Below, piece by piece: positions 320 through 7,007 of a stretch of 13,849 nucleotides of DNA. The DNA is from Candidatus Babeliales bacterium (GTDB lineage: Bacteria > Babelota > Babeliae > Babelales > Vermiphilaceae), in the NCBI GenBank assembly GCA_044451405.1, contig JBIOKB010000024.1, positions 1 to 13,849 on the forward strand, given 5' to 3'. Below the pieces are notes generated by a model. That model saw only the letters and a program-made list of their open reading frames with translations, was not told where the DNA came from and did no database searches. Every line of letters starts with the position of its first letter. The first letter of the stretch is position 1. Position numbers and translations under genes: made by a program.

Positions 320-1174
320 TTATCCACGATACGGTGGTGGGAATTGACCACGATCCCGCATATCATTTTGCAAGCGTCTCCAATTATCATCTTGGCGTGC
401 TTGCCACATGCCATCGCGACCATCTTTATTGTGCATCGTTTGTACTACGTTGTTGATCTGTTCTCTGGTGCGCTCACCTTCACTGCGTGATGCACGTGTT
501 GTATCTTTAAACATCGCTTCCATCCAAGAGCGGTTGTTTGTTTGCTCTTGTACAACGCCGCGCACTTCACTAGTCAGCGCTTGTAGTTGTTGTTGTGTAT
601 TTATTTCTGCATTAAAGCGCGCTTGCTGTTGGGCAATGGTACGATGGTGTTCAATTTGCTTGGTGATCTCTGCGCTGAGCAACAGATTTTTTTGTCGATG
701 TAGTTCTTTTATGTTGGTAAGCAGCGCATAGAAGTTTTCTTGTTCAGCAGGTTCAAGAGCACTGATGTTGACAGCAGCTAGTTTTGCCAGCGTTGCTTCA
801 AGCTCTTGATCGTAGGTAAAAAATTTAAGCTCTTTGTTACCATATTTGCCCGTGATGATGGTTACTAAGTCCCCCTTAGTAAGGGATTGTAATTGCCGTA
901 ATTCAGGAGCATATGATGCGTTGGTGTCAGCAATCAGGTGTTGTGCATATGCGCGATCACGCGCTTGTTGTGCAGCGATTTTTTGCGCAAGCTGCTCTTG
1001 GCGTTCCCGTTCCCATTTGCCTGTAATGGCAGGATAGATAAGATGTTCGATAGCAAGGATACCAAAAAAGGTTCCTGCTACGGCCACTCCAATTTTTTCG
1101 CCTTCAGTTAAACCCCGCGCAGAACTGGTAGCAATAAGAAGGAGCAGGGCGCACCTTTTAAAACGTTGGGTCAT
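320..1174 (-). CDS. Hypothetical exported/membrane-anchored coiled-coil protein with C-terminal PPPY
   Basis: 284-aa ORF with AAAGGA RBS; signal-like start (KRCALLLLIATSSARG), a second hydrophobic segment (IGVAVAGTFFGILAI), a long Q/E/A-rich helical region and its own terminator. Confidence 0.85.
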   Translation of the reverse strand: MTQRFKRCALLLLIATSSARGLTEGEKIGVAVAGTFFGILAIEHLIYPAITGKWERERQEQLAQKIAAQQARDRAYAQHLIADTNASYAPELRQLQSLTKGDLVTIITGKYGNKELKFFTYDQELEATLAKLAAVNISALEPAEQENFYALLTNIKELHRQKNLLLSAEITKQIEHHRTIAQQQARFNAEINTQQQLQALTSEVRGVVQEQTNNRSWMEAMFKDTTRASRSEGERTREQINNVVQTMHNKDGRDGMWQARQDDNWRRLQNDMRDRGQFPPPYRG

Positions 1175-1315: not shown

Positions 1316-1840
1316 TTATGCTGCAGATGCAACTTCCGTATCTTGGAACTTAATGGTTGGTATCATGTCAGAAAATTGAAATGATTGCCAATCAGCGATC
1401 CCACCATTTATTTCTCTTACTGTTGAGCGCAAACCCGCTACAAAACCCAATGTTTTTAAGATTGGCTTTAAGTAGTAAGAATCAATATTGCCATAGAGAC
1501 CTTTAGCAGGAGCCTTTTTGGTTTCATCAACTATAACATAGCCATCTTTATCTACTTTGACTTTTGCATCTTCTTTTTTATGACCAATAAGACCATCAAT
1601 GATTAAGTATTTGAGGTTATGGAGTATGTTTTGGAAGCTAGCAAGTTCACAGATATTATAGCGAACAGGATCATTGTTAGGTGTAGTATTGCAATATTTT
1701 AAAATAGAAGCTGCAAATAATACACCAGCAGCATATTTAGGAGCATTTCTATAGGTTATTGTTATTGCATGTGTTGCAGTAGAGCTCGTAAGTACGAGTG
1801 CGGTAAGCGTTAATGCTGCTAATTTCATCGAAAATTTCAT
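1316..1840 (-). CDS. Hypothetical secreted/membrane protein
   Basis: 174 aa; Sec-type signal peptide (MKFSMKLAALTLTALVLTSSTATHA), AAAGG RBS, candidate promoter upstream and strong terminator downstream. Confidence 0.85.
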   Translation of the reverse strand: MKFSMKLAALTLTALVLTSSTATHAITITYRNAPKYAAGVLFAASILKYCNTTPNNDPVRYNICELASFQNILHNLKYLIIDGLIGHKKEDAKVKVDKDGYVIVDETKKAPAKGLYGNIDSYYLKPILKTLGFVAGLRSTVREINGGIADWQSFQFSDMIPTIKFQDTEVASAA

Positions 1841-1943: not shown

Positions 1944-3116
1944 TTACGCCATTAGATAGCTGGTAAGAGCCCCAATAAAGGTAAGGGCTACGGGAAGTTT
2001 TACCGGGGTAAAACCACACGTTTTATAGGCAATATTACAGAATGTTAAGGCAATAAGAACCGGGTAGCCAACATAGGTTATAATGCCGCCAGTGAGTGCT
2101 AAGACCTGTGAAAGACCAGCTATCGATAATGGCAAGCATGATGCTAAAACGATGATAAGGGATGGAACATAGGAAATGCGCTTATGAAAGATTTCCCCAT
2201 GCAGATATTCAGCTACTACCGCTGCTAAGGCGATAGCAGTTGATAGGCACGCCATAAGCACGGCAGTTGCTATAATAAATGCGCCATGGGCACCAAGAAC
2301 TTTGAATGAAATAGCTCTAAAAAGTTCTCCTGCATTACCATCATGAAATGCTTGCCCATGGTATGCGCCTAACAGGCTCATGCCCACATAGATGCATCCA
2401 AGGAGTGATACGCCTATGATACTTGCTTGTAATGCCATAGTAACCGCCTTTTTTTGCTCATAGGAAGAACCTAAGGTGTTTTTAAGCAAGGTGATAATGA
2501 TGGAAGAGAAAAAGAGAGCGCCGAGTAAATCGAGGGTCTCATAACCGCGCGTCAGGTTGCTGGTAAAAATGAAGCATGATGATGCTGCTTGATGAAGTAG
2601 ATCATCCGGAAAGAGTAATCCCTTAGTTATAATAATGAGTAGTGCAGCAAGAAGGCTTGGGCTGATGATATACCCCAAAAGCTGCATAATGCGGCTTTCT
2701 TTATAGGTGAGCACAAAAGTAATGCTTAAAAAGCAGAGGCTAAATATAAGCGATGAAAGAAGTGTCGTGTGATTGAGTAATGACCAGGGAAGAAAGGGCG
2801 CAATCATGGTATGGGATAGCGTGGTAATACGCGGGAGCGCAATAGCTGGCCCTATGATCATCATGCAGATAAAAATCATACTTGAGCCTATAGGTTTGCC
2901 CAGACGATTAAAGAATGCTTGGTAATCGCCATTAAACAAGATCATGCCGATAAAACCTGCAATGGGTAAACATACGGCAGTTATAAGAAAGCCAATAATA
3001 CCAATCCAAGTTTTATCACCAGAAACCATACCAACTTGGAGCGGGTACATTAAATTACCGGCACCAAAGAGCATAGAAAAGATAGCAAGACCAAGAGAAA
3101 TAAGCTGTGTATTCAT
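1944..3116 (-). CDS. brnQ: Branched-chain amino acid:cation symporter (LIVCS/BrnQ family)
   Basis: GLAIFSMLFGAGNLMYP, IGPAIALPR, GYETLDLLGAL and ACLSTAIAL match BrnQ motifs; polytopic hydrophobic protein of 390 aa. Confidence 0.93.
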   Translation of the reverse strand: MNTQLISLGLAIFSMLFGAGNLMYPLQVGMVSGDKTWIGIIGFLITAVCLPIAGFIGMILFNGDYQAFFNRLGKPIGSSMIFICMMIIGPAIALPRITTLSHTMIAPFLPWSLLNHTTLLSSLIFSLCFLSITFVLTYKESRIMQLLGYIISPSLLAALLIIITKGLLFPDDLLHQAASSCFIFTSNLTRGYETLDLLGALFFSSIIITLLKNTLGSSYEQKKAVTMALQASIIGVSLLGCIYVGMSLLGAYHGQAFHDGNAGELFRAISFKVLGAHGAFIIATAVLMACLSTAIALAAVVAEYLHGEIFHKRISYVPSLIIVLASCLPLSIAGLSQVLALTGGIITYVGYPVLIALTFCNIAYKTCGFTPVKLPVALTFIGALTSYLMA

Positions 3117-3192
3117 AAAAGCCTTTAGAAACTATTGTTGTTCGATTCTTTTGCTTTGTATGATCAAGCATAAGCTAAAAGAAGGAATAGAT

Positions 3193-5583
3193 ATGAATTA
3201 TATTAAGAAATTTGAAGATATTCAATTGAAGGATATCCCACAAGTAGGGGGCAAGAATGCTTCACTTGGTGAAATGATACGGCATTTATCAGGACAGGGG
3301 CTACGTATACCTACTGGATTTGCAACAACCGCTGATGCCTACTGGCACTTTATTACGGCAAACAATCTGTTATCTGAATTAAAGCGGATCATGAATACAC
3401 TCCCAAAAACACCGGATACCAAAGCGTTAGCACAGGTAGGTAGTGCGGTGCGCGCGCTCATTCTTAATGCGCGTATGCCGGATGATTTGGCACGCGAAAT
3501 TGTACAAGCATACCAAGAGCTATCAGCGCACTATCAGGAACAAAATCTAGATGTTGCGGTACGTTCATCAGCTACCGCAGAGGATTTGCCAAACGCCTCA
3601 TTTGCAGGGCAACAAGAAAGTTATGTGCATATTCATGGCGAACAAGAATTACTTGACCGTTGGAAGCGTTGTATTGCTTCATTGTTTACTGATCGAGCTA
3701 TTGCATATCGCATTGATAAAGGGTTTGATCATTTTGCCGTCGCCTTATCAGTTGGTGTACAAAAAATGGTGAGATCAGATAAAGCATGTGCTGGTGTAAC
3801 ATTTTCACTGGATACTGAAAGCGGATTTAAAGATGTGGTTATTATAAATGGCTCGTATGGATTAGGTGAATCGGTGGTGGCTGGTGAAGTTACGCCCGAT
3901 GAATTTCGTGTTTTTAAACCGACATTAGCAGGTGGGCATGACGCGATCATTGGTAAAAAACTTGGCGTTAAAAATACTAAACGCATCTATAGTGATGACT
4001 CTAATAATCCCGTTGTTATGGTGCCAGTATCAGAACAGGAGCAACAACAGTTTTGTTTGACTGATGCTGAAATTCTTGAACTTGCACGCATGACCGTTAT
4101 CATTGAAACCTATTATACCGGGCTTAAAAAAGAGTGGAGCCCTATGGATGTTGAGTGGGCAAAAGATGGTAACGATGGATTACTCTACATTGTGCAAGCG
4201 CGGCCTGAAACGGTCTACGCACATCATGATTATCATGAATTAATTCGCTATGAGCTTGATACTTCTGTAAAGAAAACAGTTTTAGTCACCGGGCAAAGTA
4301 TTGGGGATAAAATTGTAAGTGGTCCTGCACGCATTGTGCGCTCTATTGCTGAGAGCAGCAAAGTACAACAGGGTGATATTTTAGTAACTGAGATGACCGA
4401 TCCCGATTGGGTTCCCGTGATGAAAAAAGTAGCGGGCATTGTTACGGTACGCGGTGGTAGAACGTGTCATGCAGCAATTGTCAGTAGAGAATTGGGCATC
4501 CCTGCCATTGTTGGTGCGAGTAATGCGTTAGATGTACTTGCTGATGGACAACAATTGACGCTTGATTGCAGTGCTGGTGCACGTGGCGTTGTGTACGCAG
4601 GAGCCATACCCTTTAAAAAAACGGCAATCAAACTTACTGAAATACCAAAATCTCCCGTTACTCTTATGATCACGTTAGCTGATCCTGATAGTGCGTTTGC
4701 ACTTTCATTTTTGCCCGTTGATGGCGTTGGCTTAGCGCGTATAGAATTTGTAGTGAGTAATGCGATTAAAGTGCATCCCATGGCACTTATTGAGCCTACT
4801 AAAATAACTGATGCCAAGATTAAAAAAGAAATTGATGCGCTTGCTGCTGCATATCCTGATAAAAAACAATTTTTTATTGATACGTTAGCCTATGGCATTG
4901 GTACTATTGCTGCAGCATTTTATCCAAAGCCAGTGATTGTGCGCACCTCTGATTTTAAATCAAATGAATATCGTAATTTACTTGGTGGTTCCTATTTTGA
5001 ATTGGAAGAAGAAAATCCTATGCTGGGCTTGCGTGGTGCGTCACGGTATATTGATCCTTCATACAAGCCAGCATTTGCTCTTGAGTGTGCCGCGTTGACC
5101 AAAGTGCGTGAACGCATGGGACTCACCAATGTGATTGTTATGCTCCCCTTTGTGCGTACGGTTGCTGAGGCGCGTGCTGTTATTGCACTGTTGGCTGAGC
5201 ACGGATTACGCACAGGAGCACATGATCTTAAACTGTATATGATGTGTGAGGTTCCATCTAATGTGTTACTCATGCAGGAATTTAGTACCTTGTTTGATGG
5301 CTTTTCTATCGGTTCAAATGATTTAACGCAATTAACGTTGGGTATTGATCGCGATTCACCACAATTAGCACCGCTGTTTGATGAGCGGGATGCTGCAGTA
5401 AAACAGATGATGCAATTAGCGGTTAAAGGCGCACACCAAGCGCAAAAGCCTATTGGTATTTGTGGACAAGCGCCGTCTGATTATCCTGAAATTGCTGATT
5501 TTTTAATCGATGCAGGCATCGATTCTATTTCATTGAATCCTGATTCGGTGCTGCCATTTTTAATGTCAACCCGGCGAAGCTAA
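3193..5583 (+). CDS. ppsA: Phosphoenolpyruvate synthase (pyruvate, water dikinase), 796 aa
   Basis: VGGKNASLGEM, AVRSSATAEDLP.ASFAGQQE, DVEWA, QARPET, phospho-His motif GGRTCHAAI, EENPMLGLRG, FSIGSNDLTQ, GICGQ. Start moved to ATG 3193 (AAGGA RBS 3182-3186), which removes the overlap with brnQ. Confidence 0.97.
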   Translation: MNYIKKFEDIQLKDIPQVGGKNASLGEMIRHLSGQGLRIPTGFATTADAYWHFITANNLLSELKRIMNTLPKTPDTKALAQVGSAVRALILNARMPDDLAREIVQAYQELSAHYQEQNLDVAVRSSATAEDLPNASFAGQQESYVHIHGEQELLDRWKRCIASLFTDRAIAYRIDKGFDHFAVALSVGVQKMVRSDKACAGVTFSLDTESGFKDVVIINGSYGLGESVVAGEVTPDEFRVFKPTLAGGHDAIIGKKLGVKNTKRIYSDDSNNPVVMVPVSEQEQQQFCLTDAEILELARMTVIIETYYTGLKKEWSPMDVEWAKDGNDGLLYIVQARPETVYAHHDYHELIRYELDTSVKKTVLVTGQSIGDKIVSGPARIVRSIAESSKVQQGDILVTEMTDPDWVPVMKKVAGIVTVRGGRTCHAAIVSRELGIPAIVGASNALDVLADGQQLTLDCSAGARGVVYAGAIPFKKTAIKLTEIPKSPVTLMITLADPDSAFALSFLPVDGVGLARIEFVVSNAIKVHPMALIEPTKITDAKIKKEIDALAAAYPDKKQFFIDTLAYGIGTIAAAFYPKPVIVRTSDFKSNEYRNLLGGSYFELEEENPMLGLRGASRYIDPSYKPAFALECAALTKVRERMGLTNVIVMLPFVRTVAEARAVIALLAEHGLRTGAHDLKLYMMCEVPSNVLLMQEFSTLFDGFSIGSNDLTQLTLGIDRDSPQLAPLFDERDAAVKQMMQLAVKGAHQAQKPIGICGQAPSDYPEIADFLIDAGIDSISLNPDSVLPFLMSTRRS

Positions 5584-5587
5584 AATA

Positions 5588-5602
5588 GTGTGCCTAGCAC
5601 AC
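5588..5602 (-). terminator. Small hairpin just after the ppsA stop; possible weak terminator for the minus-strand operon
   Basis: GTGTGC-CTA-GCACAC, 6-bp stem; followed by TATTTT on the minus strand. Confidence 0.35.
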
Positions 5603-5611
5603 CACACTCCT

Positions 5612-5715: not shown

Positions 5716-6663
5716 TTACTGAATAATGCAACATGAAGGTGAAGGTGTTGTTAATGCCTCTTCTCGCTCTTTGTGCTTTCTTTGCAACTCGGCGTCTGCG
5801 TCTGCAAGAATTGTGTCTATAAAGTGTTCATGAGGATCTACTTGGTAATCAGCAACAATACCGGCAGGGTCTTTAAAAAGTCCTACCTCTTGCAATATGG
5901 TTGCCACTGCATGATGGCGTGTTGTTCTTACCGTTTCTACCTCTGTTTGTGCTTGTTGTACTGTTTTTTTGATAAGATTAGCTTCTTCAAGAGCACGTAT
6001 TCCATTGTCACATGCTCGTTTGAAATGTTCATCAAGGGGTGCGCCTGCTTTAATAAGAGTATCAATTACTGTGCAGTTTTGTTTTGTCTCAAGGTGGTGT
6101 CTTTCTAAAACAAATGTGCAGGGAGATAGGCCATCACAAGTGCATGTATCTAGTTTGACACCCGCCTTACATAGTAGTGCGATTTGTTTTGATTTAGTTT
6201 CAGGAGATCTAAAACAATACCTATCATCCAAGATGTAACGTAACGCCTCTTGCGTATTTCCACCATGAGGGTCTGCTTTGTAATCAAGAAGACATCGTGC
6301 TATAGCATACGTGGAGGCCATACAAATAGTTGGTAGACGATATCCGTTGGGGTGCAGTAGGGTGAAGTTAGGATTTGCTTTATGTTTTAATAAAAATTTG
6401 ACTCTTTCTAATTGTCCATCGGGATCATCTAAAATAGAGTCCTGTAGTGTAGCTATTAAAAATGTTCCATTTTCATCTATTTCATCGGCACGAAAATCAT
6501 GTTTTATACCGAATAGCATAAGCTCCCATCGTCTTATATAACTAGTTTGAGGGTTACGGAACTCTCCTTTGATGATGGTAAGGAGATAGGGTTCTCTCGT
6601 TAATTGGGCAGAGAATAATGATAGGGTGTATACAGAAAGAATGCATAAAAAAGGTATGCGCAT
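5716..6663 (-). CDS. Exported ankyrin-repeat-like protein with C-terminal CaaX motif (315 aa)
   Basis: Degenerate ankyrin second-helix motifs VKFLLKHKANPN, ARCLLDYKADPH, IALLCKAGVKLD…DGLSP and IDTLIKAGAPLD; ATG 6663 has a GGAG RBS and a signal-like N-terminus; ends SCCIIQ*. Confidence 0.8.
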   Translation of the reverse strand: MRIPFLCILSVYTLSLFSAQLTREPYLLTIIKGEFRNPQTSYIRRWELMLFGIKHDFRADEIDENGTFLIATLQDSILDDPDGQLERVKFLLKHKANPNFTLLHPNGYRLPTICMASTYAIARCLLDYKADPHGGNTQEALRYILDDRYCFRSPETKSKQIALLCKAGVKLDTCTCDGLSPCTFVLERHHLETKQNCTVIDTLIKAGAPLDEHFKRACDNGIRALEEANLIKKTVQQAQTEVETVRTTRHHAVATILQEVGLFKDPAGIVADYQVDPHEHFIDTILADADAELQRKHKEREEALTTPSPSCCIIQ

Positions 6664-6728
6664 AATATACTCCAAGAACAAAATGTTATTTGAATAGTAT
6701 AAAGAGATATGCGCTGATAATAAAGCGG

Positions 6729-7007
6729 TTATTTATTTCCGTACTTTTTTAACTCTGCAATATTAACAAGCTTAGTTGGATCAGTGGTTACAAACTGAAC
6801 CAGCACATCGTCACGCCGATGGCCACATTCGGTGCACGTACCATTTTTCATGAGCTCATACGCTTGTTCACAGTGACAATTGCATTGAACAAAATGGTAT
6901 TTTTTGTAATCAAAACGTTGTTCAAGATGCATGCTTTTATCAAGGCACCCAATGCGGGCATACACAGGGGTAACAATAAACGTGAGAGTTAGAAGCCACA
7001 CTTTCAT
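6729..7007 (-). CDS. Small secreted Cys/His-rich protein (CxCxC…CxxCxH), 92 aa
   Basis: Signal peptide MKVWLLTLTFIVTPVYA; GAGGA RBS; start overlaps the upstream stop (ATGA at 7007-7004). Confidence 0.8.
   Translation of the reverse strand: MKVWLLTLTFIVTPVYARIGCLDKSMHLEQRFDYKKYHFVQCNCHCEQAYELMKNGTCTECGHRRDDVLVQFVTTDPTKLVNIAELKKYGNK

Follow-up and report, generated by a model that had tools for sequence, protein, structure and literature searches.

Why should a bacterial protein with what looks like an export signal end in the CaaX box that eukaryotic prenyltransferases read? The question is raised by a gene on contig JBIOKB010000024.1 of assembly GCA_044451405.1 (Candidatus Babeliales bacterium), which we analysed over its whole length of 13,849 nucleotides, here called the window. 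The product of the gene is a protein of 315 residues with a C-terminus that reads ...EEALTTPSPSCCIIQ* on translation. A first-pass annotation of the window had pointed to a terminal CIIQ, a second cysteine just before it and a TTPSPS linker, and translation bears out both the positions and the description given there. The evidence set out below, drawn from relatives of the protein and from counts of such tails across genomes, suggests that the tail is probably a host-lipidation signal; we hold the route by which the protein would be delivered with lower confidence.

The gene and its conserved C-terminus

The gene is an open reading frame (ORF) on the minus strand that runs from an ATG at 6663-6661 to a TAA at 5718-5716 and encodes 315 amino acids with no internal stops; a longer excerpt of the protein's end is ...KHKEREEALTTPSPSCCIIQ*. 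Its features are given below, with confidence in the structural model as the predicted local distance difference test (pLDDT).

5716 to 6663, minus strand: coding sequence of the 315-residue protein, P0001, with the TAA stop at 5716-5718 included (open frame and translation; start backed by relatives that align from M1)
6670 to 6673, minus strand: Shine-Dalgarno sequence GGAG, 6 nt upstream of the ATG, read from the sequence
6607 to 6663, minus strand: signal-like N-terminus, residues 1-19, consisting of M-R, a hydrophobic core I3-F17 and S-A before Q20 (hydropathy rule)
5944 to 6585, minus strand: degenerate ankyrin-repeat domain, residues ~27-240, with about 5-6 helix pairs (VIA-align, profile against the PDB and phmmer; Pfam matches below cut-off)
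5749 to 5931, minus strand: conserved helices on the C-terminal side, residues 245-305, with a basic patch (R295-R300) at their end (helices 225-260, 266-272 and 277-305 in the model)
5734 to 5751, minus strand: T-T-P-S-P-S, a flexible linker spanning residues 305-310 (beyond 305 the model has no regular secondary structure; mean pLDDT 73 for residues 301-310)
5731 to 5733, minus strand: Cys311, the second cysteine, directly before the CaaX box; candidate for S-acylation (alignment)
5719 to 5730, minus strand: CaaX box C312-I313-I314-Q315 (translation, alignment)
5585 to 5605, minus strand: terminator-like hairpin downstream of the gene (consensus scan only)

A TTG at 6681 appears in the ORF list as an alternative start that would lengthen the protein, and the one form present in the public protein collection is shorter: P0002, of 267 residues, which begins at M49 (6517-6663 being the stretch concerned). 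Since relatives align with the target from M1 (MRIPLIIF opens P0007 and MRIQLLIL opens P0005) and GGAG precedes the ATG at 6663, that ATG is, on this evidence, the true start, and the TTG at 6681 and the M49 start are less likely. The deposited M49 form would therefore be without the signal-like segment.

The last four residues of the protein, C312-I-I-Q315, have the C-a-a-X layout with an aliphatic a2 and an X of the classes used by farnesyltransferase (FTase) and geranylgeranyltransferase I (GGTase-I). In the AlphaFold model, built on a 10-row alignment and confident elsewhere, residues 311-315 have a pLDDT below 50, and the tail is for that reason predicted to be disordered and exposed. As a rule, FTase prefers Q, M or S at position X, and GGTase-I prefers L.

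An exhaustive phmmer search returned 51 proteins at E <= 0.001 and 10 at E <= 1e-10, with large ankyrin proteins among those 10. The relatives so found are metagenomic proteins of unknown function, and by cluster membership they are singletons on metagenome contigs of 1-4 kb. The target and nine family members were aligned (alignment A2; 10 rows, 7 of them full-length), the full-length rows being 33-41% identical to the target. Nine of the 10 rows end in C-a-a-X, and the aligned homologues thus keep the cysteine at position -4 with the single, uncertain exception of P0006. Five rows end in CCIIQ (P0001, P0003, P0004, P0011 and P0013), as does P0056, the full-length cluster mate of the fragment P0011; the other four tails are SCIIL, PCVIL, CAIL and GCIIL. 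X in the family therefore switches only between Q and L. The cysteine at -5 is found in all rows that end in -IIQ (6 counted) and in none of the four that end in -L. The linker before the box differs among the relatives, from 0 to ~14 residues, and among the 12 cysteines of the target only C124 and C312 are invariant across the 7 full-length rows. The alignment thus indicates that the cysteine at -4 is under selection.

The family tree is star-like, with support below 80% on six of its eight inner branches and one branch well supported. We therefore do not argue that the tail types arose independently, and because of the tree the association of the CC doublet with Q may be one inherited state. 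Searches of genomes returned the ankyrin core: the target protein gave only a weak ankyrin match in the genomes of 60 relatives, and the A2 profile gave ankyrin-core matches only (best 5e-12) in 79 genomes of the family. None of the ankyrin-core paralogues at 19 loci of related genomes ends in CaaX. Searches for related loci with family alignment A1 in genome contigs, and with A2 and P0004 in metagenome contigs, returned no locus.

CaaX tails across genomes

The first-pass annotation had also asked whether such tails are more frequent than chance would have them, and whether they go with export signals. The window's own assembly (G000, in which the window is contig C24) comprises 1,023,543 bp on 89 contigs at 40.3% G+C and is 95.7% complete. 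Taking the longest ORF of >= 80 aa at each place and removing the overlapped ones gave 1011 ORFs. The C-terminus of each was compared with a strict pattern, C[VILMA][VILM][MSQACLFI], and with a loose one that accepts any a1; expected counts came from the internal frequency of the same pattern, and the pattern shifted by 1-7 residues served as the control. Counts of the pattern in the DNA of many genomes were not used, since without ORF context each genome would be expected to give 1-3 matches by chance.

The strict pattern ends six of the 1011 ORFs against 0.75 expected (Poisson P 1.3e-4), and the frequency stays above chance when the target is left out (P = 1.0e-3). At each offset from 1 to 7 there are 0 matches. 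The six are as follows.

C6:12084-12686: ends in CIIM
The target: ends in CIIQ
C34:5408-6325: ends in CVIL, with a sub-threshold Ank_2 match
C27:3195-5699: three adjacent genes ending in CVIL, with CC or cysteine clusters and basic residues upstream

All six proteins start with a hydrophobic segment, and they have no mutual BLASTP match at E 1e-3. Tails of the other five include ...KQSQRRCCVIL and, on C27, ...GCCAGCCSSCSPCCVIL. NCBIfam gave no match for the target or for the five others; the C34 and C6 proteins found only themselves in a large protein collection, and the C34 and C27b proteins had no match in the 79 family genomes. Housekeeping proteins of the assembly with a cysteine at -4 miss the pattern (MnmE ...CVGK, S8 ...CTVW and SecA ...CCGK). 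The suspected link to export signals also held in this genome, where six of the seven loose hits are signal-like as compared with 410 of the 1004 other ORFs (Fisher one-sided P 0.022). Two more ORFs of the assembly carry CaaX-like or cysteine-cluster tails, C20:15700-16194 (...CCDDCCGCCCIPL) and C11:16586-17554 (...NCLFA).

A complete 1.09-Mb genome of the same family and another genus (G033; 1004 ORFs) has many C-T-[VI]-[QL] endings on signal-bearing ORFs among its tails with a cysteine at -4. The loose pattern matches 12 of its 1004 ORFs against 1.73 expected (P 3e-7), and offsets 1-10 give 1-5 matches. A 1.2-Mb part of a genome of Peredibacter, a predator of bacteria (42% G+C), was taken as a control and has no strict match among 1094 ORFs and two loose matches against 1.0 expected. 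From these counts, an excess of CaaX tails appears clear in the window's own genome, likely in G033 and absent in the Peredibacter control. Because the tail is conserved among relatives and such tails are in excess genome-wide, it is, as judged from these comparisons, not a chance ending.

Related tails were seen at three further loci. On piece L130 of G033, the ORFs at 16555-17349 and 17566-18294 (both minus strand) end in ...NENLVQEEEPIMWACTVQ and ...NENLVSEEEDVIIGCPVQ; the pair keeps the cysteine at -4 and the final -VQ while the intervening residues differ, a second independent case of tail conservation. A 438-aa signal-bearing ORF on piece L245 of G053, a genome of another Babeliales family (2206-3522, minus strand), ends in ...NSKKRTKKCHIM, a polybasic run followed by a CaaX box, which is the layout of K-Ras4B. 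In G063, from a third genus of the window's family, a 357-aa ORF at locus L158 (16-1089, plus strand) ends in ...KSRYCFLQ, a CaaX-like tail, and lies beside an ankyrin-core paralogue.

Putative export signal, ankyrin core and genomic setting

The N-terminus consists of M-R, 20 uncharged residues (I3-T22) and then R-E, and a hydropathy rule scores it as signal-like. The same layout is common to the 7 full-length relatives, in which the segment ends in A-A-E, S-A-E or P-A-Q, and the AlphaFold model places residues 3-21 in a separate helix of low pLDDT. The rule and the relatives fit the signal-like N-terminus proposed in the first-pass annotation. A lipoprotein was considered and rejected, as the sequence lacks a lipobox and the relatives do not keep C7.

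The proposal that the protein is exported through the Sec system rather than by a type IV secretion system fits what was found of secretion genes. No VirB4 (type IV), FHIPEP (type III) or VipB (type VI) marker was found in G000, which encodes two secretins and one ATPase of the type II secretion system (T2SS)/type IV pilus type. The enzymes of prenylation were sought in the same assembly: no prenyltransferase beta-subunit family (PF00432), no alpha-subunit repeat (PF01239) over cut-off and no Rce1-like protease (PF02517) was found there. Since the assembly is 95.7% complete, we describe these enzymes and the secretion markers as not found rather than absent.

A tripeptide of a small residue, Met and an acidic residue, [AGSC]-M-[DE], stands directly after the signal-like segment unusually often. 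Of the signal-like ORFs, 25 of 416 have it in G000, 37 of 424 in G033 and 4 of 356 in the Peredibacter control, with a background of ~1.1% per span. One example is the CaaX protein at C34:5408-6325, which opens MKKMYLLVLLGLAIIPKLQAMNM... The tripeptide may be a lineage-specific cleavage or sorting motif.

The core of the protein appears to be a degenerate ankyrin fold. Run against PDB sequences, the A2 family profile gave 165 matches at E <= 0.01 over query positions ~91-218, among them a DARPin (2.2e-19) and Ankyrin-2 (5.4e-12). The AlphaFold model is all-helical with one short hairpin (mean pLDDT 84.7, predicted template modelling score 0.77), and its residues 27-239 align by VIA-align with 3hra at Z 10.6 and a root-mean-square deviation of 2.9 A over 180 residues, a Z below ~13 being common for helical repeats. 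Nearly all of the best 50 VIA-align rows are ankyrin-repeat or DARPin-type repeat proteins. Foldseek against the PDB gave no match at E <= 0.001 (best 1.2e-2), and the assignment therefore rests on VIA-align and the sequence profile. The models of the Pfam Ank clan (PF00023, PF12796, PF13637) stay below their cut-offs on the target (Ank 14.5 bits against 21.1; Ank_2 14.5 bits against 27.3), and none of five close relatives scanned reached a cut-off. The phmmer matches outside the family are multi-ankyrin proteins (P0008, P0010 and P0012), and every named neighbour in the ESM Atlas is an ankyrin cluster. Of the earlier description, about four degenerate ankyrin units, the degenerate ankyrin character is right, as judged from the model and the profile, and the number is not, since the model shows about 5-6 helix pairs. 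In the C-terminal helical region, I285, L286 and L293 are invariant in the alignment and A289-D290-A291 nearly so.

The gene shares its contig with ordinary bacterial genes: PEP synthase, a GalU-type nucleotidyltransferase and BrnQ (all by Pfam), PheS, tRNA-Phe at 9541-9615 and a fragment that we take from its sequence to be DnaE. Apart from that tRNA, Rfam, tRNA and terminator scans of the window gave nothing that bears on the finding. Because the target gene sits among these genes on one contig, eukaryotic contamination is, on the evidence of the contig, very unlikely. The PheS of the window is closest (48-61% identity) to metagenome-assembled genomes titled Candidatus Babeliales, Dependentiae or Babeliaceae; four of the best PheS rows are titled just 'bacterium' and one 'uncultured Pseudomonadota'. 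The Dependentiae, with the order Babeliales, are a lineage of intracellular parasites of protists, and the producer of the protein is presumably intracellular too, to judge from its phylum.

The cultured member Chromulinavorax destructans is reported to have predicted signal peptides on 44% of its coding sequences. Of its 98 ankyrin proteins 78% carry one, and they were proposed to be secreted host-manipulating effectors; its cells lie in the host cytoplasm, and the Sec system was proposed to export the signal-bearing proteins (PMC6561590). The target resembles these ankyrin proteins in phylum and in having a putative N-terminal signal and ankyrin repeats. The passages of that paper found by term search mention no lipidation motif, although its text was not searched by us for CaaX (PMC6561590).

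Other ORFs of the window show features of their own. In six more the N-terminus is hydrophobic and signal-like and Pfam assigns no family at E <= 0.001, which fits the secretome-rich genomes described for Dependentiae.

320 to 1174, minus strand: signal-like ORF without a Pfam family
1316 to 1840, minus strand: the same
6729 to 7007, minus strand: the same
9808 to 10770, plus strand: the same
10837 to 11289, minus strand: the same
12316 to 12759, plus strand: the same

The ORF directly upstream of the target, of 92 aa, is rich in cysteine, with CxC and CxxC motifs, and there is a 4-nt overlap between it and the stop of a 67-aa ORF. The PEP synthase ORF, listed at 2944-5583 on the plus strand, carries an N-terminal extension of ~83 residues that overlaps brnQ (1944-3116, other strand); since the Pfam match begins at residue 99, translation probably begins near 3193, with the Met of MNYIKKFEDI...

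Probable host lipidation and the alternatives to it

We favour the reading that the protein is an exported effector lipidated by host farnesyltransferase. A Sec-type signal at its N-terminus would take the protein across the inner membrane and be cleaved near A19; the protein could then leave the cell through a secretin/T2SS-type apparatus or in vesicles and enter the host cytoplasm. In the host cytosol, FTase would farnesylate C312 of the disordered C-I-I-Q box, after which the host -aaX protease and methyltransferase would probably remove -IIQ and methylate the cysteine, and the neighbouring C311 would probably be S-acylated. The lipid tail and the basic patch upstream would tether the ankyrin domain to a host membrane, where the domain would bind a host protein. 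The first-pass annotation had put forward a host-lipidated effector, and this is supported by our finding that the cysteine is kept among homologues and that the tails exceed chance frequency; the export route, the arrival in the host cytosol, the lipidation, the target membrane and the host partner are inferred.

A number of observations weigh against this reading. P0006, a possible loss, ends in ...AEQEWP without a CaaX box (it starts with V and lies on a 1445-bp contig), as the distant relatives P0043 and P0048 (E 3e-4 to 6e-4) also lack one, and conservation of the tail rests on ~9 short metagenome contigs of unresolved mutual relatedness, with no orthologue to A2 at E <= 1e-15 in 260 other genomes of the order. 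The ORF calling is crude, and a few of the CaaX matches are probably not genes. In G033 the strict pattern ends only 3 of 1004 ORFs against 0.6 expected (P 0.023; offsets 1-7 give 1, 0, 1, 1, 1, 0 and 0). The loose pattern is post hoc, because it was picked after the G033 tails had been seen, and its hits there are not significantly enriched in signals (7/12 vs 417/992, P 0.20). A 400-kb part of the G053 genome has 2 matches in 369 ORFs against 0.78 expected, which is not significant. The hydropathy rule by which an ORF is called signal-like flags 41% of all ORFs. Export by Sec leads into the periplasm, and passage onward to the cytosolic prenyltransferases of a host is undemonstrated for Dependentiae; a vacuolar lifestyle would moreover separate the protein from those enzymes.

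The tail might instead serve the bacterium itself, with no lipidation by a host. On a periplasmic or surface protein it could direct sorting or retention, form a metal or redox site, or be the object of an undescribed bacterial modification. The signal leading into an oxidizing periplasm would suit such a use, as would the lack of any type III, IV or VI delivery marker found in G000, the cysteine clusters that take the place of a simple CaaX box in some of its tails (...CCDDCCGCCCIPL on C20, ...GCCAGCCSSCSPCCVIL on C27) and the high cysteine content of the target (12 in 315 residues vs 1.4% genome-wide). However, a bacterial function would explain poorly why the cysteine stands exactly at -4 as in the eukaryotic rule, with 0 matches at offsets 1-7, why a2 is aliphatic and why X is limited to Q, L and M. 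The genome gave neither a prenyltransferase nor an Rce1-like protease when searched, and Peredibacter, a predator with many secreted proteins, is without such tails. To our knowledge, with no search made beyond the full-text ones given below, no bacterial system reads a C-terminal CaaX, and we regard this explanation as unlikely. A change of lipid within host modification is less probable still: the tail would be geranylgeranylated, or C311 and the box would be modified by another route such as S-acylation only, and the lipid and the membrane would differ. Four relatives have X = L (CIIL, CVIL and CAIL), as do four other G000 proteins that end in CVIL, and the CC doublet goes with the -IIQ rows and never with the -L rows, as if the two cysteines acted as a unit. 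Against this, X = Q directs FTase by the textbook rule, and the pairing of CC with Q may be a single inherited state in an unresolved tree.

It seems very improbable that the tail arose by chance or is a functionless relic, or that the gene is mis-binned eukaryotic DNA. Such an origin would agree with the want of a confident Pfam domain, with a collection form that starts only at M49 and with the missing orthologue in the 260 genomes of the order, but it is opposed by a tail kept at 33-41% identity and in excess with clean offset controls, by the Shine-Dalgarno sequence and by the bacterial housekeeping genes on the same contig. A Rab-type CC motif was rejected as well, since it requires a Rab fold.

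Host farnesylation, the reading we prefer, has a precedent in an ankyrin protein of another bacterium. In AnkB of Legionella pneumophila, an F-box/ankyrin effector, the CaaX box CVLC is acted on by host FTase, RCE-1 and ICMT, and the same paper reported CaaX proteins, found in silico, in 20 pathogens with type III-VII systems (PMC2916131). The target is likewise a bacterial ankyrin-repeat protein with a C-terminal CaaX box, and AnkB comes from an amoeba-associated intracellular bacterium. In contrast, AnkB depends for its injection on the Dot/Icm type IV system, whereas the target has a putative Sec-type signal at its N-terminus in a genome where no VirB4-type ATPase was found; the target also has a CC doublet and a conserved helical region of 60 residues before its tail. 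The two show no sequence relationship beyond the ankyrin repeats, and homology to AnkB was rejected, there being no F-box among the Pfam matches at E <= 0.1. Legionella PelC and PelE and Salmonella GtgE and SifA are likewise described as using CaaX mimicry to reach host membranes (PMC13081727, PMC13423502, PMC4534788). Unlike the target, these are type III or IV substrates of Pseudomonadota, and none is homologous to its family. The target would thus be a case of CaaX mimicry as in AnkB and the Salmonella effectors, in another phylum and with a putative Sec-type signal in place of an injection signal.

Among eukaryotic proteins, the tail resembles those of the Ras type, with a disordered linker, a palmitoylated cysteine and a farnesylated CaaX box. 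Yeast Ras2 ends in CCIIS, from which CCIIQ differs at X only. Unlike Ras-type proteins, the target is bacterial and has no GTPase domain, and it has a putative N-terminal export signal, which eukaryotic CaaX proteins do not. A full-text search of the literature, which left subscription-only texts and supplements outside its reach, found Dependentiae never together with CaaX or prenylation, and candidate phylum TM6 never together with CaaX. Full-text searches for Babela with farnesyl and for CCIIQ or CIIQ tails found nothing relevant, and one on amoeba symbionts gave Legionella, chlamydial and unrelated papers only, as judged by their listing.

Tentatively, Dependentiae may deploy an entire repertoire of effectors that evolve fast, bear Sec signals and are lipidated by their hosts through CaaX mimicry. 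Six unrelated CaaX ORFs in G000 and about a dozen in its relative from another genus point that way, and in such a repertoire a second cysteine would accompany the farnesyl tails but not the geranylgeranyl ones. The effectors would then have to cross from the periplasm of the bacterium into the cytosol of the host by a passage not yet known, and this would raise the question of how, in the absence of an injection apparatus, exported proteins come within reach of prenyltransferases in the cytosol. Host prenylation of effectors is established for Legionella and Salmonella proteins that are delivered by type III or IV injection, and a conserved CaaX box on proteins with Sec signals would extend this mimicry to a distant phylum. 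The Dependentiae are widespread and almost uncultured parasites of protists, with signal peptides on ~40% of their proteins and effectors to which no mechanism has been assigned. A CaaX tail on such proteins would give the first testable handle on which of them work inside the host cytosol, and at which membranes, and, if the repertoire is real, the C-terminal CaaX box would tag the cytosol-facing effectors among the signal-bearing proteins of the phylum.

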